A DNA stretch of 32,000 nucleotides from Candidatus Pacearchaeota archaeon (GTDB taxonomy: Archaea; Nanobdellota; Nanobdellia; Pacearchaeales; GW2011-AR1). The stretch lies in assembly GCA_038869895.1 (NCBI GenBank), contig JAWCQE010000002.1, forward strand, positions 73,034 through 105,033, written 5' to 3'. The stretch's first letter is position 1, and every line of letters starts with the position of its first letter. Shown piece by piece: positions 2,475 to 24,680 of this stretch. Below the pieces are notes generated by a model, which was given only the letters and a program-made list of their open reading frames with translations, did no database searches and was not told where the DNA came from. A program made the position numbers and the translations under genes.

Positions 2475-3209
2475 ATGGCATTAGAATTAAATGCAACACG
2501 AGAACCATACAGAGAATTTTACGGCAAAAATGTATGGCAGATGCCGGAGTTAATAGCTGACGGCAGAGTTCCTATGTCTGTTGCTGGATTAATGCAAAGA
2601 CGACTTGATGTTAGAAATTCTGATGCTGATGTTAAAAGTTCTTACATGGACAATTATTTTGACACAGGAGATGCAGTTTTATATCACCCAGACGGCAGAG
2701 TAAAAATAGTTCTTGATTCTCAAACTTTGAGAGAAATGACACCAGATACTCAAAGAGTTGGTGGAGCATTACTTTTGGGCGAAGATGTTTATGATGCTTT
2801 GCAAGGTGAAGAATTCAAGAAAGGAAAACTTGGAAAAGTAGATGAACGACTTACAAAAGAACAAGCTAAGGCTCATCCAGTTTGGAAAGTTTTAGCAAGA
2901 GACCAAGCATTACTTGATGATTATGCTGATTGTATTTTTGCAGAAGGCAAACAAAGATTTAATGATGATAATGCGATGGGTGTATTCCTAGATTCTGCTG
3001 GAGATAAGCCTAAATTGAGGGCTTGGTGTGTCTGCAGGCTTGGGCTCAGGTCTGACGCCTCTGGCGGGGACAGCCTCGTCAGTGATCATGGTCGTTTCGT
3101 CGGTATAGCGCCGGAGGCACTAAGATTTGATAGCGCATTAAAAGGTTTGGAAGCAACAGTTCGACCTGAATTGCTAGAGCCATTTAGAGAATTTAGAAAG
3201 AAACTTTAA
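2475..3209 (+). CDS. Hypothetical protein with a DGR-type variable C-terminus (candidate DGR target protein)
   Basis: 244-aa ORF, visibly GC-richer than its neighbours. Its 3' end (RAWCVCRLGLRSDASGGDSLVSDHGRFVGI) is repeated downstream in an A-rich form. Confidence 0.7.
   Translation: MALELNATREPYREFYGKNVWQMPELIADGRVPMSVAGLMQRRLDVRNSDADVKSSYMDNYFDTGDAVLYHPDGRVKIVLDSQTLREMTPDTQRVGGALLLGEDVYDALQGEEFKKGKLGKVDERLTKEQAKAHPVWKVLARDQALLDDYADCIFAEGKQRFNDDNAMGVFLDSAGDKPKLRAWCVCRLGLRSDASGGDSLVSDHGRFVGIAPEALRFDSALKGLEATVRPELLEPFREFRKKL
3019..3109 (+). repeat. DGR-like variable repeat (VR) inside 2475..3209
   Basis: Ungapped 91-nt hand alignment to 3393..3483 gives 69 identities. Of the 22 mismatches, 14 lie where the other copy has A. 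This copy has 10 A and the other has 22. Confidence 0.6.
3108..3120 (+). other. Imperfect hairpin GCGCC-GGA-GGCAC immediately 3' of the VR
   Basis: Stem with one mismatch. Nearly the same 14-mer (AGYGCCGRAGGCAC) follows the VR-like region of the 13615..14820 gene but in a different reading frame. It is absent after the 3393..3483 copy. Confidence 0.45.
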
Positions 3210-3392
3210 TTCTGAAAACGTTTTTATACTTAAATTATTATTAATATTAGTCCTGGCAGCCGAAAGGAAACTTTTGAGAAGCTGGGTTATATGCACTTCC
3301 ATGACGGCAACTTTGTTGTCATAAAATACAGCCATAACACCAAATGTTGTGAAATGGCGGTGATAAGTTTAGAGTGGAAGGGCTATGCTTTC

Positions 3393-7012: not shown

Positions 7013-8889
<1,877 letters not shown>

Positions 8890-9064
8890 TTAATGTATTA
8901 ATAAGATTTAAGATAAAAAAAATCTATATTTGAACTTTTTAAATTTTTTGGTGATAATTTACAATATAAAAGTGAGTAAATTTTTTTTAAGACTAATTGG
9001 TAAATTAAAAATAGGATTATGGCAAACTTTATTAATCTGTTTATTTTAAAAATAAAAAGATAAA

Positions 9065-11695
9065 ATGGGTGATAGTTATATAAAATGGCTTTCTGAATTA
9101 GATAAAAATTCTGGAGGTGTTGCTGGTGGCAAGGGAGCAAATCTGGCTGAAATGTTCAATGCAAACCTTCCTGTTCCTCCTGCTTTTATAATCACAACAG
9201 AAGCGTACAATTATTTAATTGAAAAAACAAGTATAAAAAAAGAAATTGAGAAGATTCTTAATAATATTAATGTTGATGATACTATAGAACTTGATGAAAA
9301 ATCAACAAATATACGTGAGATAATAGTAAATTCTCAAATGCCAAAAGATTTGGAAGAGGAGATAATTGAGGCATATGAACATCTAAGCACAGATAAAAAA
9401 TCACTTGAATTTGCGTCAAAAAACGCGTTGTCAATATTAAAACATAGTCTTGAACCAACGTTTGTAGCAGTTCGTTCATCTGCAACGACAGAAGACCTTG
9501 AAGATTCAAGTTTTGCAGGACAACAGGAAACTTACCTTAATGTAAAAGGGAATAAAGAACTATTGGAAAATGTTAAAAAAGTTTTTGCAAGTTTGTTTAC
9601 CTCAAGAGCAATTTATTACAGAAAAAAACGCGGATTTTCAGGAGAAAAATTTGCTCTTGCAGTTGTAGTGCAGAAAATGATAAATTCAGATAAATCTGGA
9701 GTTATGTTTTCAAAAAATCCTGTAAAGAACAATAATAACGTGTTAATAGAAGCAGTTTTTGGACTTGGAGAAGGTATAGTCTCTGGAAAAATAAATCCAG
9801 ATACATACGAAGTATCTTCTGAACTTGAGATAATTTCAAGAAAAATAGGAATAAAAAAAATAGCTCTTACAAGAAATTCAAATGGAAAAAACGTTGAAGT
9901 TAAATTAACTGAAGAAAAACAAACCTCACAAGTTTTAAAAGATAGTGAAATAAAATCTTTGGCAAATTTTGCATTAAAAATTGAAGAACATTATAAAAAA
10001 CCTCAAGATATTGAGTTTGCTATTGAATCTGGGGAAATTTATATTGTGCAGTCAAGGCCAATAACAACGAAAATAAAAGATTCAGAGAAAAAAATAAGCG
10101 GCAATTTAATTCTTGAAGGACTTGGAGCATCACCGGGAGTTAGGATTGGAAAAGTAAAAATCATAAACTCAATGAGCGATTTAGATAAAGTCGAGAAAGG
10201 AGATATACTAGTGACAAAAATGACAAATCCCGATATGGTTGTTACAATGGCAAAGGCTAACGCTATTGTAACAGATGAGGGGGGAATAACAAGTCACGCG
10301 GCAATTGTATCCAGAGAGATGGGGATACCTGCAGTTGTTGGAACAGGAAATGCAACAGAAGTTTTGAAAGACGGACAGATTATTACAGTTGACGGCTCAA
10401 ATGGAAAAATATATTCTGGGGAATCTGAAGAAAAAAGTGTTGAAATAAAACCAATTGTAAACACAAAAACAAAAATTAAAGTTATTGTTGATATTCCAGA
10501 AGCTGCCCATAGGGCGACTCTGACAAAATGCAATGAAATAGGATTACTAAGACTTGAAGGAATAATCGCCTCACAAGGAAAACATCCAATGCAGTATGAA
10601 AAAGAAAACAAACTTGAAGAATATGAAGATATATTGGAAAGAGGAATATCAAAAATTTCTGAAAAGTTTATTGAAATATGGATAAGGACGAGTGACTTAA
10701 GAAGTGATGAATTTTCATCCCTTAAAGGTTCTCCTGAAAAAGAAGGAAATCCTATGCTTGGAAATCATGGGATAAGGTTTTCATTAAAACATCCGAGAAT
10801 ACTTTCATCCGAACTAAATGCTGTAAAAAAGATAGCATTAAAAAATGAAGGAAAAATATTTGGAATAATGTTTCCGCAAGTTATTTCTCCATCAGAAGTT
10901 AATGAAGCAAAAAAAATAGCAAATCTATTAGGATTGTTAAAATTAAAAAATATAAAATTTGGTATAATGGTTGAAACACCTGCTGCTGCTTTAATTATAA
11001 GAAGTTTTATGAATACTGGAATTTCATTCGTGAGTTTCGGAACGAATGACTTAACACAATATATTCTTGCTATTGATAGGAATAATGAGGAGGTTCAAAA
11101 TTTATTTAATGAAATGCATCCAGCAGTTCTTAATGCTATAAAAAGAGTAATAAGAACATGTAAAGAATATGGAGTTGAAACTTCGATATGTGGACAAGCC
11201 GGGAGCAGAAAAGAAATGGTATCTTTTTTAGTTGAAAACGAGATAGATTCAATTTCTGTAAATGCTGATGCGGCGTATGAAATATCAAAGATTGTGGCTG
11301 AAATTGAAGTAAAAAACAATGATAAAAAGAAGGTTCATTTTAAAGCTTCAAGATTTAAGAGAAGCAAAAATTATGGAAAAAAAGAATCTCCTGAAAAAAA
11401 AACTCAAGAAGTACTTAATAAAATAGAAAGTGAGATAGTAAAAGAAGTGTTATCTAGTCCAGGCGATATTTTCACACAAGATAACAATCAAAAAAGAGAT
11501 GTTAAAATACCTTATCATAAGTCAAAAATTGAAAAACCTCTTCCAGCCTATATATCTTCTACAAAAGATTTTTCTTTCATGGACGATATGGGCGCATTAA
11601 AAGCCCTTTTCGGTGATAATAATAAAATTTCTAAAATTGAATTTGAAAAAAAATCAGAAATTGACGATAAAGAAGAAAAAACAGATATTTTTTAA
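9065..11695 (+). CDS. ppsA: Phosphoenolpyruvate synthase (pyruvate, water dikinase) with a Lys-rich C-terminal extension
   Basis: GGKGANLAEM ATP-grasp start, central swivel domain with TDEGGITSHAAIVSREMGIPAVVG (catalytic His), and a PEP-utiliser TIM barrel (FVSFGTNDLTQY). About 130 extra low-complexity residues at the C-terminus. Confidence 0.9.
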   Translation: MGDSYIKWLSELDKNSGGVAGGKGANLAEMFNANLPVPPAFIITTEAYNYLIEKTSIKKEIEKILNNINVDDTIELDEKSTNIREIIVNSQMPKDLEEEIIEAYEHLSTDKKSLEFASKNALSILKHSLEPTFVAVRSSATTEDLEDSSFAGQQETYLNVKGNKELLENVKKVFASLFTSRAIYYRKKRGFSGEKFALAVVVQKMINSDKSGVMFSKNPVKNNNNVLIEAVFGLGEGIVSGKINPDTYEVSSELEIISRKIGIKKIALTRNSNGKNVEVKLTEEKQTSQVLKDSEIKSLANFALKIEEHYKKPQDIEFAIESGEIYIVQSRPITTKIKDSEKKISGNLILEGLGASPGVRIGKVKIINSMSDLDKVEKGDILVTKMTNPDMVVTMAKANAIVTDEGGITSHAAIVSREMGIPAVVGTGNATEVLKDGQIITVDGSNGKIYSGESEEKSVEIKPIVNTKTKIKVIVDIPEAAHRATLTKCNEIGLLRLEGIIASQGKHPMQYEKENKLEEYEDILERGISKISEKFIEIWIRTSDLRSDEFSSLKGSPEKEGNPMLGNHGIRFSLKHPRILSSELNAVKKIALKNEGKIFGIMFPQVISPSEVNEAKKIANLLGLLKLKNIKFGIMVETPAAALIIRSFMNTGISFVSFGTNDLTQYILAIDRNNEEVQNLFNEMHPAVLNAIKRVIRTCKEYGVETSICGQAGSRKEMVSFLVENEIDSISVNADAAYEISKIVAEIEVKNNDKKKVHFKASRFKRSKNYGKKESPEKKTQEVLNKIESEIVKEVLSSPGDIFTQDNNQKRDVKIPYHKSKIEKPLPAYISSTKDFSFMDDMGALKALFGDNNKISKIEFEKKSEIDDKEEKTDIF

Positions 11696-11743
11696 TCTAT
11701 ATTTAACTAATATTAATGAAATATAAAGTTTAATGAAGAAAGT

Positions 11744-12046
11744 TCAAATTTTTATTTTAACAATTCCATTTTTATTCTTTATTGTACATTGACAAATAAG
11801 TCTAAAATTATCACTTTCGTCAAAGCCCATATCAATTTCATTTTTAGTTCTTTCACTTAAATTTTCCATACCCTCTATAATTTCTACTCTACAACTTCCA
11901 CATCTTCCGTCGGTGCACCCAAAAGGGACACCAAGTTCTTCAGCCTTATCAATTAAATCTTGGTTATTATTTTCCTTGACTTCTTTTTCATTTATCTCTT
12001 TTGATTCAAATTCAATTATCTCGTCGATCCTAATTATCTTTGCCAC
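11744..12046 (-). CDS. 2Fe-2S ferredoxin-like protein
   Basis: 100 aa with CTDGRCGSC (C-x4-C-x2-C) and a later CQC, the plant-type 2Fe-2S ligand pattern. Confidence 0.7.
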   Translation of the reverse strand: MAKIIRIDEIIEFESKEINEKEVKENNNQDLIDKAEELGVPFGCTDGRCGSCRVEIIEGMENLSERTKNEIDMGFDESDNFRLICQCTIKNKNGIVKIKI

Positions 12047-12186
12047 TAATTTAATGGAAGTATGGATTATATAAATATTTAGTGTGGTAATTTGTTATCT
12101 ATCATATATATTGTAAAATGTATATTTAACTTAATAATTCTTTAAATAGCCCTTAATAAAATTGTTTTAATTATAAAGTAATTAAA

Positions 12187-13461
12187 ATGAAAGAATTAAA
12201 AGGGACTTTTTTAAGGGGATTGACATCTATATTATTATCTTTGCCTCCTTTGGCAACCAATGGTTGTGCATATCATTCTGTTTTTAGGAATAATGAAATG
12301 TCGAATGGAGCTCAATTACTTGAAGATACTAAATTAAATTATGAAAATTATGATGCAATGAGGGAGTATGTTATCGTTAATAATAGGGCTTATCCTAGGG
12401 GAGAAAGTCCTGTAGAATTTGATGAGGAGATAATACAGGTTTCACCTTTACCAGTAAAGAGGTTAAGAGAAATTAACGCCACTTACATAGAATCTCCTGA
12501 TGGAAATATAATAATGAACTATGCTTGTAGAATACCTCCTTCAGACCTTCAAGACTTGATTAAAGATTATCTGCCAGATGGAATCAAAGTTGAAGAATTT
12601 CCCACTAAAAACATGCTCATATTCAGTGGAAAAAAAGAGTCTTTTAATGAAAATAATTTAGGACATCTTTCTAATTTAATAAATCAATTTGACATTCCGC
12701 CAGAACAAATTCGTATCCGTTTAAGAATAGTAGAATATTTTGCGGATAATACCTATGACAGAGACTTATCATTAAATGTTTTGAAGGATTTGATGCCAGT
12801 AATTACATCTTCTCTCCCCAGTAGTTTAGATACAAATAAAAATCCCAATATAGGGACTGCTATACATCCTTTTAATCTTATTACTCTAAATACAAAAAGA
12901 CTTACTTTTGAGGGAGCAATAAAATTTTTAGATAGTTATGGAAAAACAAATACTCTTGCAGACTTGGATTTATTAACTTCAAATGGAAGACCTACTGAAT
13001 TGAAAAATCAAAGTTCAATTCCATATCCAGAAACGCAGATAGTTGGAAATAGTGTATTAGAAACTTTAAGATATAGAGATATTGGGTTGGACGCAAAATT
13101 AATTCCCTTTGCTAATGAGGAGGGATTTATTACAATAAAAGTTGAAAAAGCAGAGTCAGGAGAGCAAACAGGTTTTTCTGGAACAATTCAGAGGCCGATT
13201 TTTAGACTTGCGGATTTAATTACAGAAATAAATGTAATGAATGGATTAACTTATTTTGTAGCGTCTTCGAATTTTACAAGATATAAATCAGTAAATAGAG
13301 GAATCCCTGGAGTTAATAAAGTCCCAGTAATAGGAGATGTTACAACTTCTAGTTCAATTGAAAATATTCAGTCACAGCTTTTATATTTTATAGAAGCACG
13401 TGTAATGGATAGGAGGGATAGAATAACAGGAATTGTGCCATCAATTAGAAATAATCCTTAA
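12187..13461 (+). CDS. Secretin-family protein (GspD/PilQ/pIV-like), putative lipoprotein
   Basis: N-terminal signal ending LATNGC. C-terminal half shows the secretin-domain pattern: LLTSNGRPTELKNQSSIPYP, YRDIGLDAKLIPFANEEGFITIKVE, RPIFRLADLITEINVMNGLTYFVAS, IPGVNKVPVIGDV...QLLYFIEARV. Confidence 0.65.
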   Translation: MKELKGTFLRGLTSILLSLPPLATNGCAYHSVFRNNEMSNGAQLLEDTKLNYENYDAMREYVIVNNRAYPRGESPVEFDEEIIQVSPLPVKRLREINATYIESPDGNIIMNYACRIPPSDLQDLIKDYLPDGIKVEEFPTKNMLIFSGKKESFNENNLGHLSNLINQFDIPPEQIRIRLRIVEYFADNTYDRDLSLNVLKDLMPVITSSLPSSLDTNKNPNIGTAIHPFNLITLNTKRLTFEGAIKFLDSYGKTNTLADLDLLTSNGRPTELKNQSSIPYPETQIVGNSVLETLRYRDIGLDAKLIPFANEEGFITIKVEKAESGEQTGFSGTIQRPIFRLADLITEINVMNGLTYFVASSNFTRYKSVNRGIPGVNKVPVIGDVTTSSSIENIQSQLLYFIEARVMDRRDRITGIVPSIRNNP

Positions 13462-13614
13462 ATTACTTTTATTATTTTTAACATATCTCTTCTTGGTCTT
13501 ACCTTTCCTTGCTTTTCTTCAAGCAATTAACAATTTACCCATATTGTATGTTTTCTCATATAGATTTTTGTAGGTTTTCATTATAATCCTGACCATAGAC
13601 TACCATTAAGAACT

Positions 13615-14820
13615 TTAAAAATTTTCGCGCGTGCCTTCGGCACTAACGACTACTACCTGACCGTGCTCGTACGAATTACGCAAGCAGTCGTAATGCGAAT
13701 TCAAGTTTCGGTTACTATTGAGAAAAGCCCTCGCAAGGCCAAATTGCATAGTACATAATGTTCTATTTCCTCCACTACCTAAAATAGGTAATCCATTCTC
13801 ATCTCCCCTACTAAATCTTTGTTCATGATTACTTTTTACTAATTGTGGAGCATGATATATTTTTCCATCTTCTCTTAAATTAAATGCTAAACCATAATCA
13901 GAACTTTTACTTGCATCAGAACTAGGATTATCTAATTCAAGACTTGTTAGTGGGACCATAACAGGATATTCAATTTTTCCATCTCTTGCCTTAATTTGTT
14001 TAGCTAAATGTTGTGCTAGTTTAGCATTAACTTCACATTGAGTTCTTAAAATTAAGGCTCCATCGTTATAAGTAGAACTTAAATCTAATGTTCCTTGTTC
14101 TAAAATTCTCTCTAAATCTGCCAAGGTTGCTGTTCTAAATCCCCCACTACTTATAATTTGATTAACTAAAACAACCGCAAAAGAATTTGAACCTCTTACA
14201 ACACCATCATAAAAGGATAAAACATTCAAAGTTCCTATTCCGTTATATTCTGATTTAACTCTTTCTTGATATTCCTCTAAAACTTCTTTACCAAATTCTC
14301 CTCTTAAAAGATTAACTTTATGTTTTTGTCCGTTAATATCTAAATCTCTACCTTCAAATTTTGGGATTTCAAATTCTGGTCTAAGTAATCCGAGCCCTGT
14401 AACCTTGTATAATGCTTTTCTTTGCTCTCTTGGAACTTGCGATAATTCCACAATCTTACCAGTTAAGTAAGATTTAGCATCTGATTCTGGAATTCCCAAC
14501 ATTTCTGCTGCTGTGGTTAAATCTTTTTTATTCAGTCTTCTTGCCCTTAATTGTTCTTCTGAAATCTGGTCAACCAATCCTAAATCACTCATACGATAAT
14601 GTTTACCTTCCATTCTATCATCAAATTTTACAGACGCAGATGGTTCACCATCAATAGAATGATCTCCAAAATTACCGATAACTACTCCTTCACCATAATT
14701 CTGGTCTGCAAATCTACTATCTCTTCTAATTTTGATTCTCGCTCCTCTCCCCAATTCCTGTTCAGATAATCTTTTCAGAAGCCATTCTTTCAATTGTTCA
14801 TTCCATGTTTTTTCGGTCAT
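13615..14820 (-). CDS. Hypothetical protein with a DGR-VR-like C-terminus (second candidate DGR target)
   Basis: 401 aa. GC-richer than the flanks, and last gene of a tightly packed three-gene unit. The C-terminus RAFLNSNRNLNSHYDCLRNSYEHGQVVVV parallels the RAW...HGRFVGI end of the 2475 gene. Confidence 0.65.
   Translation of the reverse strand: MTEKTWNEQLKEWLLKRLSEQELGRGARIKIRRDSRFADQNYGEGVVIGNFGDHSIDGEPSASVKFDDRMEGKHYRMSDLGLVDQISEEQLRARRLNKKDLTTAAEMLGIPESDAKSYLTGKIVELSQVPREQRKALYKVTGLGLLRPEFEIPKFEGRDLDINGQKHKVNLLRGEFGKEVLEEYQERVKSEYNGIGTLNVLSFYDGVVRGSNSFAVVLVNQIISSGGFRTATLADLERILEQGTLDLSSTYNDGALILRTQCEVNAKLAQHLAKQIKARDGKIEYPVMVPLTSLELDNPSSDASKSSDYGLAFNLREDGKIYHAPQLVKSNHEQRFSRGDENGLPILGSGGNRTLCTMQFGLARAFLNSNRNLNSHYDCLRNSYEHGQVVVVSAEGTRENF
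13631..13643 (-). other. Perfect hairpin GTGCC-GAA-GGCAC 3' of the VR-like segment
   Basis: 5-bp GC-rich stem with a 3-nt loop inside the last codons of the gene. Homologous at nucleotide level to 3108..3120. Confidence 0.45.
13644..13731 (-). repeat. VR-like segment rich in AAY-derived codons
   Basis: Coding-strand codons are aat agt aac cga aac ttg aat tcg cat tac gac tgc ttg cgt aat tcg tac gag cac. Twelve of the 19 are NNY codons reachable from AAC/AAT by changes at A. No cognate copy was found in the window. Confidence 0.4.
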
Positions 14821-14821
14821 T

Positions 14822-15235
14822 CTACATTCCTCCTCTTAGAACATCCATTGCTGCTCTTGGATTTTTCTCAAAGACTTGAAAAGACATTCCTATCATCACT
14901 GAATTTCTTTTTAGCCATTCGGGAACTTCGAGATTTAAATCAATTTCTGTTTCTCTTTCAAATTGTTCCGCTACTTGTCTGCTTCTTTGTTCAGAATAAG
15001 AGGTCACTGTTAAAATTACATTATAACCTGCAGAGTTTACCAATCTATCTTTTTGTTGAGAAACCATTAATAAATAAGGTTCTTCAGTTTCTTTAAATAG
15101 TCCATACTTAACAGTATTCCCCAATCCTAAAGGTATAGGAAGAAGTTTTTCACTAAAACTTCTAATAGCTCCTTCTAATGAACCTTTGAATGCTCCAACT
15201 CTTACTAATGTTTGTGGTGTTTTTATTGAAGCCAT
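14822..15235 (-). CDS. Hypothetical protein (middle gene of the GC-rich cassette)
   Basis: 137-aa ORF separated by 1 nt from both neighbouring ORFs. No motif recognised. Confidence 0.5.
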   Translation of the reverse strand: MASIKTPQTLVRVGAFKGSLEGAIRSFSEKLLPIPLGLGNTVKYGLFKETEEPYLLMVSQQKDRLVNSAGYNVILTVTSYSEQRSRQVAEQFERETEIDLNLEVPEWLKRNSVMIGMSFQVFEKNPRAAMDVLRGGM

Positions 15236-15236
15236 C

Positions 15237-15527
15237 TTATCCCAAACTTGCCTCCAATTCTTGATAATTATTTAATGGGTCATCTAATTTAATTTCTTCA
15301 ACCCTATGCTCGTATTCGTATTGAGCACAATCTTTTATTGGACATTCGACACATTTTTGCATCATCTTTCTTTTTTTCGAGTGATAAGTTACTCTATCCC
15401 ATCTAACTGATTTTCCCTGTAAATCTGGTTTTGAAACAAGCAACCCTCTAAACCTTGCTCTTGTATCTTGAGGAGCATTTTCTACTGCATATTCAATTTG
15501 TTCATCTGTAAAAAGCCTGTCAACCAT
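15237..15527 (-). CDS. Hypothetical protein with a Cys cluster (first gene of the GC-rich cassette)
   Basis: 96 aa containing CVECPIKDC. Its start lies 24 nt from the SOD stop. Confidence 0.5.
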   Translation of the reverse strand: MVDRLFTDEQIEYAVENAPQDTRARFRGLLVSKPDLQGKSVRWDRVTYHSKKRKMMQKCVECPIKDCAQYEYEHRVEEIKLDDPLNNYQELEASLG

Positions 15528-16285: not shown

Positions 16286-17128
16286 ATGAAAAAGCCTATT
16301 ATACTTGTAATATCAATATTAATCTTATCAGTTTCATTTGTTTTGGCTTGGAACCCAAATTTTCAAGTTGCCGAAGTTGTTCCTTCAGATGGACATGCTA
16401 TTGTTAGGATTCCTGAGAACGCAGTTCAAGTTGCTCCTGGTATTTTTTCTTTAGGAATATCAAGAGATGTTGATGGAAGTTTAATTGAAGGATATGCAAT
16501 AGTTAAGTATAAGAAAGGATTTGAACACAAGTCAACTAACAAACAAGGAGGGTTTAGAGGAAATGAGTTAACAACACAATGTTTCAGTTTTCTTGCAAGT
16601 GGAGCAAAATGGAAAGTAAGAGAGAATTACATAGTTAATCCATCAAATAATGTGGGATTGGATGAACTATTTATAAGAAGTAATTTAGTTTCAGATATTC
16701 AAGAGTGGGAGAATGCGGCAGGGAAGGATATTTTTGGTGATGAGGTTAATGGAAGTGTTAATATTGAAAGTATAGGAAAAGTTGCTAATGGACAAAATGA
16801 AGTTGTTTTTGGAAGTATTAACAATGCAGGAGTAATTGCAGTTACTTATGTTTGGGGAGTTTTTTCAGGTCCTCTTAAAAATAGAAGATTAGTTGAATGG
16901 GATCAAATCTACAATCAAGTCGATTTTTCATGGAATACCAATGGAAATCCAAATGATATGGATTTTGAAAACATTGCCCAACATGAATTGGGACATTCTT
17001 TTGGATTAGGGCACCCAAGTGATTCGTGCACAGAAGAAACAATGTTTAGATTTGCATCTGAAGGTGAGACAAAAAAACGTGATTTAAATGTAGGAGATAT
17101 TGCAGGAATTAAAAAACTTTATAATTAA
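16286..17128 (+). CDS. Secreted matrixin-like (M10, metzincin) zinc metalloprotease
   Basis: Signal peptide, HELGHSFGLGH (HExxHxxGxxH) and a downstream Met-turn-like ETMF. Confidence 0.75.
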   Translation: MKKPIILVISILILSVSFVLAWNPNFQVAEVVPSDGHAIVRIPENAVQVAPGIFSLGISRDVDGSLIEGYAIVKYKKGFEHKSTNKQGGFRGNELTTQCFSFLASGAKWKVRENYIVNPSNNVGLDELFIRSNLVSDIQEWENAAGKDIFGDEVNGSVNIESIGKVANGQNEVVFGSINNAGVIAVTYVWGVFSGPLKNRRLVEWDQIYNQVDFSWNTNGNPNDMDFENIAQHELGHSFGLGHPSDSCTEETMFRFASEGETKKRDLNVGDIAGIKKLYN

Positions 17129-17246
17129 TTGGACAATATATAAGACTCACATTATTTATCATTATTTCAAAAATATATAATCTATTATTGCAAGAATAAC
17201 TAAATTTAAAATAGTTAAGATTAACATTTGAATAAATATTTAATTT

Positions 17247-17432
17247 TTATCTATTCCTTAATAACTTCAAATTTTCCATATATTTATTTAATAAACCTCT
17301 TAAAAAACGATCATATCCATATACTTTCCTATATGCGTCTGTAATTTCTTTCATAACATGTGGAGGTAGATAAAAACTTTCAAGAATCATATCGAGGGAT
17401 TTTTGAATATCTTCCTTTTTCATTTTCTCCAT
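17247..17432 (-). CDS. Small hypothetical protein
   Basis: 61-aa ORF overlapping the kae1 stop by 13 nt. No motif recognised. Confidence 0.3.
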   Translation of the reverse strand: MEKMKKEDIQKSLDMILESFYLPPHVMKEITDAYRKVYGYDRFLRGLLNKYMENLKLLRNR

Positions 17433-18406
17433 TTAACTTCAATGTCATCTGTCCTTTGTCTAGGAAAGATGTCAATTTTATTTAAGTCCTTTTCGTAAGT
17501 TTTTGAATTAAATATAATCTCTCCAAGATAAGCTATCATAGCTCCATTGTCAACAAGGAGGCTGTTTGGTGGGGCAAAAAACATCGCATCTCTTTCTTGA
17601 CACATAATTCTACACATCTCTTGTAATCTTATATTACACCCAACTCCTCCACCAATAACAAGTTCCTTTTTGTTTAAATGAGCAATGGCACGCTCACTTG
17701 CTTCAACTAACATTGCAAAAGCAGTTTCTTGAAGAGAAAAAGCCAAATCTTCAACAGAATAATCTTTTGATTTTTTATCATAAAGTTGCTTTAATTTTGT
17801 TTGCATTCCTGAAAAACTAATGTCCATTCCTTTAATTGAATAAGGTAGTTCAATATATTTTTTTCCTTTTTTTGCCAATTCTTGAATTTTTGGCCCTCCG
17901 GGAAATCCTAACCCGATGTATCTTGCAAATCCATCTATAAAATTTCCAATTCCATTGTCCAAGGTTTCTCCAAAAACTCTGTATCTCCCGCCAGCATAAG
18001 CAATTATTTGAGTATTAGCTCCTGAGGCATAAAGTAGAACAGAGTCTTTTGCACCTGTAATTCTTCCAATTTCAAGATGAGCAACGCAGTGATTTACAGG
18101 AATTAAAGGAACTTCGCATTTATAAGAAAGTTTTTTAGCAAATTTCATTCCTTCAAGCAAACAAGGAGCCAATCCAGGGCCAGAGGAGAATGCAATTGCT
18201 TTAATATCTTTAACTTTTGCTTTTGCCTCTTCAAAAGCTTTTTTAAAGACCTCGTTGGAAACATTTACATGATGAGCAGCAGCATCTTTTGGAACAATCC
18301 CGCCATGTTTAGTAGTATAAACATCTTTTACATTAGCAATTATTTTTCCTTTATTAACGACTCCTATTCCGAAAGTATGTGCAGTACTTTCAATTCCGAC
18401 TATCAT
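17420..18406 (-). CDS. kae1: tRNA N6-adenosine threonylcarbamoyltransferase Kae1
   Basis: 328 aa. GIESTAHTFGIGVV, HCVAHLEIGR and GGGVGCNIRLQEM are Kae1/TsaD motifs. Stand-alone, with no fused Bud32. Confidence 0.9.
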   Translation of the reverse strand: MIVGIESTAHTFGIGVVNKGKIIANVKDVYTTKHGGIVPKDAAAHHVNVSNEVFKKAFEEAKAKVKDIKAIAFSSGPGLAPCLLEGMKFAKKLSYKCEVPLIPVNHCVAHLEIGRITGAKDSVLLYASGANTQIIAYAGGRYRVFGETLDNGIGNFIDGFARYIGLGFPGGPKIQELAKKGKKYIELPYSIKGMDISFSGMQTKLKQLYDKKSKDYSVEDLAFSLQETAFAMLVEASERAIAHLNKKELVIGGGVGCNIRLQEMCRIMCQERDAMFFAPPNSLLVDNGAMIAYLGEIIFNSKTYEKDLNKIDIFPRQRTDDIEVKWRK

Positions 18407-18522
18407 AGTAAAAAAAAAGATTAGAAGTTTATAAGTTTAATGAAATAAACACTAATACAATAAAAATATATACTAGTATTGTTAAAGAAATATAAAGAGA
18501 AAATAATGGTAAATATAATAAA

Positions 18523-18651
18523 TTATCTTCTCTTTTTCTTTTTTCTACCGCCACGGGCCATTACAGCTTCACATACATTACCATTTCCGTCGACATAGTA
18601 AAGATGTCCTGGTTTTCTCTTGACAGCATTCTTCACAATTACTTTTCCCAT
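18523..18651 (-). CDS. Small basic protein (42 aa), not in the ORF track
   Basis: MGKVIVKNAVKRKPGHLYYVDGNGNVCEAVMARGGRKKKKRR, preceded by a strong GGAGGTG about 6 nt upstream of the ATG. Confidence 0.55.
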   Translation of the reverse strand: MGKVIVKNAVKRKPGHLYYVDGNGNVCEAVMARGGRKKKKRR

Positions 18652-18692
18652 TTATACACCTCCTTTTTTAATAATGATATATGGAATATGTT

Positions 18693-19031
18693 TTATTTCT
18701 TTTTAAATCTTTCTTCGACGATAATTTTTACTAAGTTGTAATTTTTTTTAGAAATGGGAATTTCCAATATCCTCTTATATTCTTTCTTTGTATTTATGTA
18801 AGGTAAAAACGGATAAACAATTTTAAAATCAGCGACGTTGTTTTTTTTGTCAAGCCATAAAACTAGAAAAGGGAAAAATACAAAAAAGGAGTGTAAGCTG
18901 GATTTAGAATTGAATAAAAATACAGGGGATTTATTTTTTCTTCGAAACATAAGTCCTCTAAAAATATTAAATCCTCTTGCCTCTTGAATATTTTTAATTT
19001 TAATAAATTTATTCTTAAATTTGATTATCAT
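18693..19031 (-). CDS. DUF192-like protein
   Basis: 112 aa. ARGFNIFRGLMFR...LHSFFVFFPFLVLWLDKKNNV resembles the DUF192 (COG1430) pattern. Confidence 0.45.
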   Translation of the reverse strand: MIIKFKNKFIKIKNIQEARGFNIFRGLMFRRKNKSPVFLFNSKSSLHSFFVFFPFLVLWLDKKNNVADFKIVYPFLPYINTKKEYKRILEIPISKKNYNLVKIIVEERFKKK

Positions 19032-19107
19032 TTAGCTATTATTGATAAAGAAAGTTTATAAATATTTAATAGAACGATTTTAAATTAACCTGTCACTATT
19101 TTTTATC

Positions 19108-19491
19108 TTAAATATTTGCATTTTCAATTTGCTTTAGTTTTTTGTGAAATAAATTTATATTTTTATCACAGACATAGTCGTGGTGTTTGAATCCCCCGCC
19201 GAAGTTTTTAGGTATGTGCATAAGTTCATGTATTATTACTTTATCCTGTTCTTCTTTTGAAAGCCTGTCAAACTGTTCTGAAATGAATTCTATTCCATAA
19301 TATGCTTTAGTCCCTATAACCATCTGCATTAATTTTCCAAGAGCATGGCAACGCGCTATTGTATTTTTTGAAGAACTACCATAACTTCTAATGGATTTTA
19401 TTCTTTCTGTTTTAATATGTGGAAAAAGTTTATTTGAGATAGAAATAACCCTATTGTGTAGTTCATTATCAAAATAGTATTTAATCTTCAT
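19108..19491 (-). CDS. Predicted zinc metallopeptidase (HExxH)
   Basis: 127 aa with the IIHELMHIP motif and small SprT/WLM-like size. Confidence 0.5.
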   Translation of the reverse strand: MKIKYYFDNELHNRVISISNKLFPHIKTERIKSIRSYGSSSKNTIARCHALGKLMQMVIGTKAYYGIEFISEQFDRLSKEEQDKVIIHELMHIPKNFGGGFKHHDYVCDKNINLFHKKLKQIENANI

Positions 19492-19594
19492 TTTTAACTC
19501 AATTATTTTTTCTTTAATTTTTTAAAATTTATCTTAATCATTGTTAGATTATTAAAATATTTGGTTAATTGGTCCTTAGTTTGATTTATTTTAA

Positions 19595-21397
19595 TCATAT
19601 CTTTCCAAGCTTTTTAGCAAGTTCCTCTGCATCGTTTAAATAATTTTCAATTTCCTTTAATCCTGAAATCCAAAAACTCTCTTTTGTTATATCAATTCCC
19701 AATTCAAGAAAAATTTCCTTTGGAGATTTTGAAGTTCCTGTTGAAAGAAATTCCTTGACTTTGTTGATAAAATTATTATTTTCTTTCACTTTTTTTTGAA
19801 GATATTTTGAAATTAAAAGTCCTGAAGCATATGAGTAAACATAGAAATAATCTCTTATATGGGGCCAATAAACCCATCCAGATTTCATTGAATCTGATTT
19901 TTCAAAAGAATTGCCGAGATAAGCAAACATATTTTTTTCAAATAATTTCCCAATATCTTCTTTTGATAAGTGGCCTTTCTTTCTATATTCTATATGAATA
20001 TCCTGCTCGAATTTATAACATGCTATCTGCCTGAAAATAGTTTGGACATCATCTTGAAGTTTTGTCATCATCAAAGAAAATTTCTGTTCATCATTTGCTT
20101 CTTTTAAAATCTCTTGAAGGACAAAATCTTCGATAAAAGTGCTTGCAACTTCTGCTGTCGATTTTGGAGTGCAAAAATTAAGAGAGTTTTGTTTTTTTCT
20201 CATTAATTCACTATTTATTCCGTGTCCAACTTCATGAGCAATTGTCAAAACATCATTTAATTTTCCAGTATGGTTAAGCATTATATAGGTTGGGTGTGAT
20301 TTGGATATATTAATACAAAATGCTCCTCCCCTTTTACCTTTGCGAGGAAAAACATCTATCTGGCGATTTTTTATAAAAACATTATATATTTCCAAAAATT
20401 CTTTGTCCAAATTTGAAAAAACTTTTTTTACTAATTTAATAGAAGAATCATAATCATATTCTTTATCTATATAAGCAAACTCAATTTTTCTATCATTATA
20501 CTTAAATTTTTTCATTCCTAGAATTTTTGCTTTTAGATTGTGGAATCTACATGAAATATAAAAATTTGATGCTACAGCTTTAACTAGCGAATCAATTATT
20601 TCTGTATCTATATCATCTTCTAAATGTCTTGAGCTGTCAGGCCTTGGAAATTTCCTTAAATTATCATCTATTTTTTTATTTTCAAGAATGGAGTTTAATT
20701 CAATTACTGCTATATCTAAATATCTTAAAACGATGGTATCAAACGCTTCTGATAATTCCTTTCTTAATTTATTATTTCGGGTAGACATAAGTCCATAGAT
20801 TTCATTAAATCCCATAATTTTTTTGTTTCCATAACTATTTGAAATTTCAGCTTCAGATTTATTAAGAAATTCTTGTGTTAGTTTCTCCCAATTGTCATAA
20901 GCAACTTTCGATTTTAATGATATTATCTTTTCCTCTTCTTCGCTTAGTAGGTGTTTGCCGGCTTTAAACAAATTACTAAGAAAATGTTTGTATTCTTTTA
21001 GTAGTTCACTAGTCAAAAATTCTTTTTGTTTTTCTTTAGGAATTTTAGAGATAGATAGTGTAAAAAATCTTATCTCATCTTTAATTTTATTAACAAAATC
21101 CTCTGCTTTTGATAATTTTGACTTTATTTCTACATCTGTTTGATTGGCATAATATTTAAGAAGAAAGTAGTAATATTCATCCCCTCCAGAAGCACAATTT
21201 CTCTGAAGTAATTCGTAATCATTTAAAGCTTCTCTTAGTTTTTTAATGTTATTCAGATAAGATTTGTCTTTTCTCCATTTTTTAGAGAACTCTTTGTGTT
21301 TTTCTTCTATAATTTTTCTTTTGAAATTAATTTCAAGATTGTCCCCCCTTTTCATTAAAGGAGTTAAATCCCATACATACTCTTTTTTTTCTTTCAT
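19595..21397 (-). CDS. pepF: Oligoendopeptidase F (M3 family)
   Basis: 600 aa with the TIAHEVGHGI zinc site and typical PepF length and architecture. Confidence 0.85.
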   Translation of the reverse strand: MKEKKEYVWDLTPLMKRGDNLEINFKRKIIEEKHKEFSKKWRKDKSYLNNIKKLREALNDYELLQRNCASGGDEYYYFLLKYYANQTDVEIKSKLSKAEDFVNKIKDEIRFFTLSISKIPKEKQKEFLTSELLKEYKHFLSNLFKAGKHLLSEEEEKIISLKSKVAYDNWEKLTQEFLNKSEAEISNSYGNKKIMGFNEIYGLMSTRNNKLRKELSEAFDTIVLRYLDIAVIELNSILENKKIDDNLRKFPRPDSSRHLEDDIDTEIIDSLVKAVASNFYISCRFHNLKAKILGMKKFKYNDRKIEFAYIDKEYDYDSSIKLVKKVFSNLDKEFLEIYNVFIKNRQIDVFPRKGKRGGAFCINISKSHPTYIMLNHTGKLNDVLTIAHEVGHGINSELMRKKQNSLNFCTPKSTAEVASTFIEDFVLQEILKEANDEQKFSLMMTKLQDDVQTIFRQIACYKFEQDIHIEYRKKGHLSKEDIGKLFEKNMFAYLGNSFEKSDSMKSGWVYWPHIRDYFYVYSYASGLLISKYLQKKVKENNNFINKVKEFLSTGTSKSPKEIFLELGIDITKESFWISGLKEIENYLNDAEELAKKLGKI

Positions 21398-23641: not shown

Positions 23642-24082
23642 TTATTGAACTATAAAAGGCTTACTTAACAAATCACATATTTTATTACCTATTTTTGCGG
23701 CCGTTTCTACTCTACTCCCTGGACTAAGAAGACCAGAATTAAGTGTTACGTTTCTAGTTTCTCCTACCTTTATTGGTGTTTCACTTCCACTTTGAGAATA
23801 ATCAATTCCTCCGACAATGGTCCCATCTACATAAACAACAATTCCACTCAATTCATCGCTTCCAGAATCTCTGCGTATAAATACAGAAGAGGTTGTACTA
23901 TTAACAGATACCACTCTTAATTGAGTCTCTAAACATCCAGTAGAACTTCCAATATTTGAAAGATTGTTGCTGACAAAATTCTGAATAACAACCCAAACAA
24001 TTACAACAGCAGCAATTGCAAGAAGAATTAAAAGGACAGTAGTTACAACATCTGACACCGCTTTTTTATTGTTTAACTTCAT
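23642..24082 (-). CDS. Archaeal type IV pilin-like protein (class III signal peptide), paralogue A
   Basis: MKLNNKKAVSDVVTTVLLILLAIAAVVIVWVV matches the archaeal pilin/archaellin N-terminal domain. Two Cys in the C-terminal globular part. Confidence 0.75.
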   Translation of the reverse strand: MKLNNKKAVSDVVTTVLLILLAIAAVVIVWVVIQNFVSNNLSNIGSSTGCLETQLRVVSVNSTTSSVFIRRDSGSDELSGIVVYVDGTIVGGIDYSQSGSETPIKVGETRNVTLNSGLLSPGSRVETAAKIGNKICDLLSKPFIVQ

Positions 24083-24245: not shown

Positions 24246-24680
24246 TTAAGATACTGCAACTGATTGGGCTTCTTGTATTCTACAACTTGTACCGTCACTT
24301 AATTCAAATGCGACATATACATCAACAAATTGGCCAGATTGTAAGGTGATAGGTGGTTGCATTTGTCCAGTAGTTGTGGATTCCGCAATTTTTATATTTG
24401 GATTTTGTACTGTTGCAGAAGATGTTCCTATTGAAGCTCTAATGACACCTATATCAACATTTCCAGAAGTTCTTCTTAAGGTTACATTTCCATTTGTTGT
24501 AACAGAAGTAACATCATACCTTGTTGATAAGCAGTCTGCAGAACCTGTGACTTCTTTTGAACCTTCTCTGACAAAATTCTGAATAACAACCCAAACAATT
24601 ACAACAGCAGCAATTGCAAGAAGAATTAAAAGGACAGTAGTTACAACATCTGACACCGCTTTTTTATTGTTTAACTTCAT
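24246..24680 (-). CDS. Archaeal type IV pilin-like protein (class III signal peptide), paralogue B
   Basis: The first 37 aa are identical to paralogue A. The C-terminal part is divergent but keeps the two-Cys layout. Confidence 0.75.
   Translation of the reverse strand: MKLNNKKAVSDVVTTVLLILLAIAAVVIVWVVIQNFVREGSKEVTGSADCLSTRYDVTSVTTNGNVTLRRTSGNVDIGVIRASIGTSSATVQNPNIKIAESTTTGQMQPPITLQSGQFVDVYVAFELSDGTSCRIQEAQSVAVS

Follow-up and report, generated by a model that had tools for sequence, protein, structure and literature searches.

A lipobox-bearing secretin encoded in Pacearchaeota chromosomes and its Skp-like partner

A stretch of 32,000 nucleotides from the genome of a Candidatus Pacearchaeota archaeon (assembly GCA_038869895.1, contig JAWCQE010000002.1, positions 73,034 to 105,033), called the window here, was analysed for a gene at 12187..13461 that had been predicted from the letters of the window to encode a bacterial-type secretin. 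We found that the 424-residue product of this gene is a true secretin that carries export and lipobox signals, and that the gene is a resident of archaeal chromosomes. We propose that it encodes a functional, vertically maintained archaeal lipo-secretin, which would work as a self-piloting, gated channel at the archaeal surface. The probability that we give to this proposal is about 0.6. In most lineages the secretin gene is linked to that of an exported Skp-like partner, with which it co-evolves. Comparative work treats secretins as an accessory with which diderm bacteria cross their outer membrane and which monoderms lack, and it does not discuss them for archaeal systems (Denise et al. 2019, PMC6668835). 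A survey of bacterial systems among DPANN protein families did not mention them (Castelle et al. 2021, PMC8204110). In our literature search, which covered few subscription journals, no paper describing an archaeal secretin was found. What appears to be new here is the archaeal secretin family with its own N-terminal region and its mini-Skp partner.

The secretin gene and its product

The gene was an intact open reading frame, and its product was identical to the NCBI hypothetical protein QW727_01695 of Candidatus Pacearchaeota archaeon. The 424-residue frame, the secretin motifs and the lipobox-like end LATNGC that the original prediction had quoted were all present in the translation. Pfam Secretin (PF00263) matched the protein with 59.3 bits (E 4.7e-16; gathering cut-off 27.5). 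The match covered residues 248-407, corresponding to nucleotides 12928..13407, and profile positions 2-168 of 169. The lack of a significant secretin hit had been named as the result that would speak against the predicted domain, and this was not what we observed. The features of the gene were as follows.

12141..12148, forward strand: TTTAAATA box, candidate archaeal TATA element, about 40 nucleotides 5' of the ATG
12187..13461, forward strand: lipo-secretin gene, 424 residues, ATG start, intact reading frame with a PF00263 match and an exact protein match
12187..12267, forward strand: signal peptide with a lipobox-type end, ...LSLPPLATNGC, in which Cys27 is the predicted lipidation and cleavage site
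12268..12471, forward strand: family-specific N-terminal region, residues 28-95, consensus HEVFR..KN...IDYS.YD...IVN.RAYLK
12472..12696, forward strand: modelled N3-like ring-building domain, residues ~96-170, of beta-alpha-beta-beta-alpha-type order, with a predicted local distance difference test score (pLDDT) of ~90
12706..13407, forward strand: secretin beta-barrel domain, residues ~174-407, from PF00263, the model and Foldseek
12862..12906, forward strand: indel-rich variable loop, residues 226-240, family alignment columns ~330-385
13300..13356, forward strand: GIPGVNKVPVIGDV... motif and short helix, equivalent of the bacterial VP.LG.IP.LG.LF membrane-interface loop

The NCBIfam models of typed secretion systems matched the protein partially and below their cut-offs. 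PilQ gave 51 bits against a cut-off of 284, GspD 47 bits against 351 and SctC 22 bits against 238, and the matches of these models and of HofQ were confined to the C-terminal parts. HofQ and MshL were likewise partial and far under their cut-offs. The protein is therefore a secretin but no equivalog of a typed system. Its top sequence matches in the PDB were PilQ, RcpA, GspD and phage pIV.

An AlphaFold2 monomer was built on the family alignment to a mean pLDDT of 69; the N3-like domain and the majority of the barrel strands reached 85-93. When this model was searched with Foldseek, all 40 of the best PDB matches were secretins (E 3.6e-18 to 4.4e-12), after which E jumped to > 0.02. The modelled secretin fold consisted of long strands within residues 174-407 and a helix at 380-386. 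The GIPGVNKVPVIGDV motif, conserved across the family, fell at this helix and aligned to 'vPllgdiPviGnlF' of PilQ. The protein ended 17 residues past the last modelled barrel strand and had no C-terminal S-domain.

A search for N-domains had also been suggested in the original prediction, and its outcome was mixed. N0 and Secretin_N (PF03958) were not detected by Pfam in the 424-residue protein, but a confident alpha/beta domain was modelled at residues 96-170. The predicted strands of this domain were at 98-102, 107-113, 134-138 and 143-149, and the predicted helices at 118-128 and 150-168. The GspD, SctC and PilQ models began to align at residues 132-155, inside the N3-like domain. For residues 28-95, AlphaFold2 confidence was low to medium, and no relative was found in the PDB or Pfam. 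In the variable loop, relatives carried inserts of up to ~40 residues (mean 5.4 inserted residues per sequence), and pLDDT was low over 211-250. From the general architecture of secretins, this loop would be at the distal lip of the barrel. The TTTAAATA box is a possible archaeal TATA element, and a weak candidate since the spacer is AT-rich.

Archaeal residence and relatives of the secretin

Secretins are otherwise bacterial or phage proteins, and among the GTDB records that contain a homologue, one bears the title Paceibacterota bacterium. Both points would favour contamination or a chimeric assembly, in which a bacterial gene was mis-joined to archaeal DNA. The contig itself argued against this. 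A separately deposited metagenome-assembled contig at NCBI (L020, 7.9 kb) was 100% identical to 7364..15307 of the window. The match ran from the GroEL gene through the gene of a 137-residue protein and included both junctions of the secretin gene, so there was no sign of chimerism at 12.1-13.6 kb. The composition of the gene was also typical. Its guanine-plus-cytosine (GC) content was 0.317 in a window of uniform GC (~0.29-0.33), and its GC at third codon positions was 0.191 against a window mean of 0.183 +/- 0.025. The codon-usage distance was 0.70, compared with 0.66 +/- 0.10 for genes of at least 900 nucleotides. In addition, 20 distinct homologues came from many projects and stood in archaeal contexts, eight of them inside the RNA polymerase/S12 cluster, and the 'Paceibacterota' locus showed the same archaeal synteny. 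Contamination is effectively refuted by these results, and we leave it hardly any weight.

The archaeal setting was confirmed in the window. Kae1 matched TIGR03722 with 424 bits (cut-off 375) and RpoK reached 73 bits (cut-off 57), and eS19, eL31 and an NFACT-R protein were further genes of the window. The presence of Kae1, eS19 and eL31 on the contig had been pointed out in the original prediction, and the homologues likewise sit among archaeal informational genes. The prediction had also held that the gene was neither mis-binned nor an obviously recent transfer. The first part was borne out by the identity over both junctions and, more decisively, by the independent homologues in archaeal surroundings. 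The second part agreed with the ameliorated codon usage, with a lineage-restricted clade that has its own N-terminal region, and with the purifying selection described below.

Relatives were collected by several searches. A word-indexed search gave 34 full-length relatives with 34-51% identity; PF00263 was present in all 34, and the named ones were Pacearchaeota. A profile search over 1.84 billion protein representatives (50% clustering) gave 19 clusters at or above 219 bits, mostly full-length with a few fragments. Below this archaeal clade the scores fell to one sequence at 133 bits and then to general bacterial secretins at or below 116 bits. Most bacterial secretins aligned only to positions ~110-420 of the family profile, and a few extended back to 68-96. 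Because most of them match from ~110 on, the ~65-residue region after the Cys is clade-specific. A scan of GTDB species genomes gave nine loci, which were labelled Pacearchaeota, Woesearchaeota or Nanoarchaeota with one exception. This exception was L009, a 389-kb contig titled 'Paceibacterota bacterium', which had the archaeal gene order and RNA polymerase subunits 78-82% identical to those of the others. The title is therefore a mislabel. The record names of the homologues suggested an origin in groundwater and in fractions from small filters (Rifle, Crystal Geyser, Hainich 0.1 um).

The lipobox Cys was invariant in 33 of 33 aligned family proteins and was the sole Cys in 19 of the 33. Only G, S or A occurred at -1. 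Across DPANN, lipobox proteins are prevalent, as is AliA, a candidate lipidation enzyme (PMC12462473). Indels of the family clustered in the linker after the Cys, in the loop at 226-240 and in the C-terminal tail, and the barrel core was gap-free.

Some members had further traits of their own. A twin-arginine RRDFL motif was found together with a lipobox in two family secretins, P0011 and P0032. Signals of the twin-arginine translocation (Tat) type on some secretins and on some Skp-like partners hint at export in a folded state, which would be unusual for a secretin. Five members (P0015, P0022, P0026, P0032 and P0034) had a long low-complexity C-terminal tail ending in SLLLK, LLLE or ILFE, and this tail end may be a sorting or anchoring signal. 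The sequence at 133 bits, P0046 (L015 5898..6992), was a 364-residue lipobox secretin distant from the family. Its neighbours were an archaeal cluster of L21e, RpoF, S13, S4, S11, RpoD, L18e and L13. We considered P0046 as a second archaeal secretin clade but gave this little weight, as it was a singleton to which the protein collection searched contained nothing closely related.

Dereplication at 98% left 20 distinct secretin types. In eight organisms, the secretin gene occupied, on the opposite strand, the gap that separates S12-S7-EF2 from NusA-RpoA-RpoB-RpoH, two gene groups which together form the most conserved informational cluster of archaea. Other sites were beside replication factor C (L010, L013) and beside ArgRS and thioredoxin reductase (L017). 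In the window, the secretin gene was between a 2Fe-2S ferredoxin gene and a three-gene operon without assigned function. No type II secretion system (T2SS), type IV pilus, type III secretion system or phage-assembly genes adjoined the secretin in the 20 dereplicated archaeal loci. A look for partner ATPase genes had been suggested in the original prediction, and it was likewise negative next to the secretin in these 20 loci. P0035, the sole classical multi-domain secretin among the matches of the first search for relatives, was taken as a bacterial comparator; it closed a textbook bacterial operon of GspE, GspK, PilN, PilO/GspM and secretin.

The Skp-like partner and other neighbours

In 13 of the 20 types, the secretin gene adjoined a gene for an exported protein of 120-147 residues. 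The spacing was 1-35 bp in most, and the orientation was usually convergent and once divergent. Four of the paired types (L008, L010, L017 and L028) were outside the RNA polymerase cluster. The small proteins had a signal peptide, of Tat type in some (e.g. L001, L006), and the conserved pattern ADTIYYGK...SKY...GYD(V/L)VVEKGDP...I..K. Pfam OmpH (PF03938) matched six of seven members with a best E of 2.5e-7, and the member shown reached 14.9 bits against a cut-off of 32.4. A precomputed PF03938 match was present on four of the 13 clusters of this family. In a PDB profile search with the family, the six best places were taken by OmpH/Skp chains (best E 0.006). The AlphaFold2 model had pLDDT > 90 in the mature part and showed one long helix and short arms. 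With this model, the nine best Foldseek matches were Skp, OmpH-like protein and SkpA, with a best E of 6e-3 and TM-scores of 0.51/0.73 to 1u2m_A. In the model, the partner looks like a Skp body with short arms. The 13 clusters were confined to the secretin-bearing archaeal lineage.

Three types with enough flanking DNA had no Skp-like gene. One was that of the window; the other two were the L003 type and L013, where a coiled-coil membrane protein of 396-441 residues followed the secretin in place of the Skp-like gene. The conserved Skp-like partner had been missed in the original prediction, as had the allele swapping described next; neither is visible in the window.

Evidence of allele replacement came from two near-identical strains. 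RpoA and RpoB of L001 and L007 were 99.5% identical, but their secretins were only 39.8% identical, and their Skp-like alleles only ~40%. When L001 10078..11749 was compared with L007 1850..3487, the identity of the flanking DNA was 93-98.6% and then collapsed. The first breakpoint was ~78 nucleotides into the secretin gene, at the lipobox Cys codon, and identity returned inside the signal-peptide part of the Skp-like gene. Since the breakpoints sit at both signal peptides, the swap took in the mature parts of the secretin and of the Skp-like protein at once. The Skp-like gene of L007 was split over two frames. In L025, an independent contig with the same allele, the gene was intact and encoded 140 residues, which makes an error or a lesion particular to the strain the probable cause of the split. 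Divergence of the secretin showed no correlation with that of RpoA and RpoB.

Selection was estimated on the one closest pair, L005 and L014, by the simple Nei-Gojobori method. The ratio of nonsynonymous to synonymous divergence (dN/dS) was 0.21 for the secretin and 0.12 for the Skp-like gene, and 0.01-0.04 for RpoA, NusA, S12 and EF2. The secretin and the Skp-like gene are thus under purifying selection. Synonymous divergence of the pair was 0.28-0.36, below that of the flanks (0.53-1.9). This pattern fits functional genes that were exchanged more recently than their neighbours diverged.

A cassette-like exchange of the pair between strains would also suit a secretin of a virus or mobile element, used for virion egress like pIV of filamentous phages, and the protein matched the PHROG pIV family at 2.1e-15. 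The pIV match was no stronger than the matches to cellular secretins. No relative was found on IMG/VR viral contigs, and no integrase, Zot/pI-like morphogenesis or coat genes flanked the secretin in a conserved way. The position in a core operon was fixed across organisms whose RNA polymerase was only 74-82% identical. A viral origin of this kind appeared very improbable to us.

The other features of the window were the following.

7013..8617, reverse strand: bacterial-type GroEL (TIGR02348, 789 bits)
8620..8889, reverse strand: GroES
13615..15527, reverse strand: tightly packed three-gene operon directly 3' of the secretin, with slightly raised GC (0.33-0.34)
23642..24082 and 24246..24680, reverse strand: archaeal type IV pilin paralogues (TIGR02537 N-terminal domain)

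The chaperonin at 7013..8617 was considered as a thermosome, which was ruled out by its match to the bacterial-type model. Bacterial-type GroEL/ES is common in Pacearchaeota and Woesearchaeota (PMC8204110), and the window agrees with this. The 96-residue product of the three-gene operon resembled only the C-terminal end of PafA (Pup ligase) and Dop (depupylase). The 137- and 401-residue products had no match in Pfam, NCBIfam, PHROG or PADLOC. These two genes were rejected as conserved partners, since they had no similarity to the same-sized genes after the L003 secretin. The two pilins were identical in the first 36-37 residues and divergent in the globular parts. They lay 10 kb from the secretin, and a link to it was rejected because no pilin-like genes recurred near the secretin in other loci. 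The gene clusters common to L010 and L013 were also rejected as secretion machinery; they were replication factor C subunits, a radical-SAM protein and a DsbA-like protein.

Several further observations were made along the way. L003, which carries P0026 and for which an archaeal origin is unsettled, had genes for CsrA, a DUF87 ATPase and two DUF4056 proteins at 16368..21347, along with the beginning of one for a 1200-residue protein with N0, Secretin_N and Secretin domains. The archaeal L013 and L003 have a pair of secretin and coiled-coil genes in common. In L010, a HerA/DUF87-type ATPase split by an intein with a LAGLIDADG endonuclease was found at 12597..15020, ~6.5 kb from the secretin. 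RpoA was a single reading frame of ~1150 residues with Rpb1 domains 1-5 in L001 (12429..15890), L005 (12983..16429) and L016 (7927..11364). Archaeal RpoA is usually split into A' and A'', and RpoA of these Pacearchaeota appears not to be divided in this way. In the window, an Rfam RT-16 RNA match (3252..3391, forward strand) scored 72.7 bits against a cut-off of 50, with no reverse-transcriptase reading frame nearby. Beside it, a 244-residue reading frame (2475..3209, forward strand) had no family match and a GC of 0.405 compared with ~0.30.

Possible role and comparison with known systems

Based on the above results, we propose how the lipo-secretin would work. The precursor would be exported by Sec, and by Tat in a few relatives. 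Cys27 would be lipidated by the archaeal lipoprotein pathway, by which the N-terminus would be tethered to the outer face of the cytoplasmic membrane. A pilotin would not be needed because there is no S-domain. The N3-like and secretin domains, predicted here as a monomer only, would oligomerise into a gated, double-walled beta-barrel that projects outward. Its distal lip, the presumed site of the variable loop, would lie in the outermost layer of the envelope or where the cell touches a partner cell. The candidates for the position of the distal end are the S-layer, an undiscovered outer membrane and the membrane of a partner cell. The Skp-like protein would probably serve as a holdase or help in assembly, or else it would be a permanent accessory of the channel, like SkpA in the type 9 translocon. 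The channel would pass large substrates (proteins, DNA or filaments) across the envelope, without a dedicated ATPase or pilin operon.

Several points weigh against this proposal. We know of no outer membrane, Bam, Lol or pilotin machinery in these archaea. The divergent family member P0040 had no lipobox Cys. The Skp assignment was sub-threshold, since the Pfam score of the member shown was under the gathering cut-off and the best Foldseek E was 6e-3. A six-frame profile search over the 32 kb found no Skp-like gene in the window, and the search for the Skp-like family returned no member from the genome of the window. The partner is therefore dispensable in that genome or too divergent to detect.

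One alternative would place an ordinary outer-membrane secretin in an unrecognised outer membrane or sheath, together with a periplasmic Skp-like chaperone of bacterial-donor origin. The original prediction had reasoned that an archaeon has no outer membrane in which to put a secretin. The secretin part of this statement stood, and the lack of an outer membrane was an assumption about uncultured cells. Some archaea do have an outer membrane, for example Ignicoccus and Altiarchaeum. Secretin and Skp/OmpH are both hallmarks of the diderm envelope, and here they are linked and co-evolving. In addition, a secretin-like barrel 21 nm wide, with no gene assigned, was seen by cryo-tomography in the symbiont envelope of a different DPANN lineage (PMC11329633), which is a parallel only and not evidence for this secretin family. 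On the other hand, the literature search found no envelope data for Pacearchaeota, and no Bam, Lol or Lpt genes were present in ~40 loci with ~10 kb of flank each. Lipid anchoring in an outer membrane would require a Lol-like shuttle, and the Skp-like protein is cut down to a body with short arms. We consider a diderm envelope in these archaea unlikely.

A second alternative would direct the secretin at another cell. A lipid-tethered secretin of the symbiont would insert its lip in a partner membrane, which may be the outer membrane of a bacterium or belong to an archaeal host, and form a gated conduit for uptake. The co-evolving mini-Skp would keep the subunits insertion-competent outside the cell, and the allele swaps would record host specificity or an arms race. 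DPANN are mostly episymbionts, and the archaea studied here are not known to have an outer membrane of their own. The swaps of secretin and partner alleles between near-identical strains, the synonymous divergence of the pair below that of the flanks and the indel-rich loop are the pattern expected of an interaction arms race, and they count in its favour. PulD-type secretins can insert in lipid bilayers without Bam, and phage pIV is a foreign secretin that works in the membrane of another organism. Giant murein-lytic proteins occur in these lineages (PMC8204110), which we also counted for this alternative. However, the evidence was circumstantial throughout. Known secretins insert from the periplasmic side and not through the lipopolysaccharide outer leaflet. 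These archaea have no known host, and the secretin was not linked to genes for effectors or uptake. The allele swapping would be explained equally well by viruses that use the protein as a receptor. We hold a host-directed conduit as a tentative idea, somewhat improbable but better placed than a diderm envelope.

A conserved archaeal secretin would imply an unrecognised envelope compartment, or a secretin that can do without a classical outer membrane and perhaps acts where two cells meet. How DPANN and their hosts exchange material is an open question on which the secretin/Skp-like pair bears. If the host-directed conduit were true, the secretin would be its first molecular component in DPANN, and a bacterial outer-membrane machine would have been redeployed across domains. 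The gene pair is a concrete target for cryo-tomograms and metaproteomes of groundwater DPANN. These results also show that 'bacterial' matches in DPANN bins should not be put down to contamination by default.

The lipo-secretin proposed here was compared with known systems. GspD and PilQ of the T2SS and type IV pilus have the same C-terminal domain and fold. The archaeal secretin differed from the GspD, PilQ and SctC equivalogs in score, in N-domain content and in operon, as GspE, PilN and PilO were not present. It resembled pIV of filamentous phages as a secretin from a genome that builds no outer membrane, and it matched the PHROG family and PDB 7ofh. In contrast to pIV, it had no phage context, held a core chromosomal position and was absent from viral contigs. 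The partner resembled the Skp/OmpH chaperones and SkpA of the type 9 translocon in its signal peptide, the C-terminal GYD(V/L)VV.K...I...K motif and the fold of the body. Unlike Skp, it had only ~90-100 mature residues, one long helix in place of the long tentacles and, in some members, a Tat signal.

The short bacterial secretins (Tad RcpA/CpaC type, and orphans with N3 and secretin domains such as P0051) were similar in length, ~360-640 residues, and in architecture. They were the next-best matches of the family profile at ~110-116 bits, and the named ones were CpaC or GspD of Planctomycetota. RcpA (8odn) was matched by the archaeal secretin in both sequence and fold. However, these secretins stood in bacterial contexts, and the family-specific N-terminal region had no counterpart in them. 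P0051 (L021 8001..12814) was unusual in its own right, as a bacterial short secretin that heads an operon of a MacA-like adaptor and MacB-type ABC transporter, outside T2SS and pilus systems. Its neighbours were MutS2, XerC and PtsP, with no Skp-like gene.

The bacterial lipo-secretins, namely HxcQ of the Pseudomonas Hxc T2SS and BfpB and TcpC of type IVb pili, are lipoproteins. They have in common with the archaeal secretin the lipobox Cys, the secretin domain and the absence of an S-domain, and the BfpB structure 9u5s was among the Foldseek matches. By the lipobox Cys, invariant in the 33 aligned proteins, and the absence of an S-domain, the archaeal secretin belongs with this self-piloting class at the level of sequence. 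The bacterial lipo-secretins differ in that they sit in a diderm outer membrane, belong to operons of T2SS or type IVb pili and carry N0/N1-type domains. Apart from the Skp-like gene, the archaeal secretin has no set partner, and its N-terminal region of 65 residues is its own. Its architecture is closest to that of the bacterial lipo-secretins and of the short Tad-type and orphan secretins.

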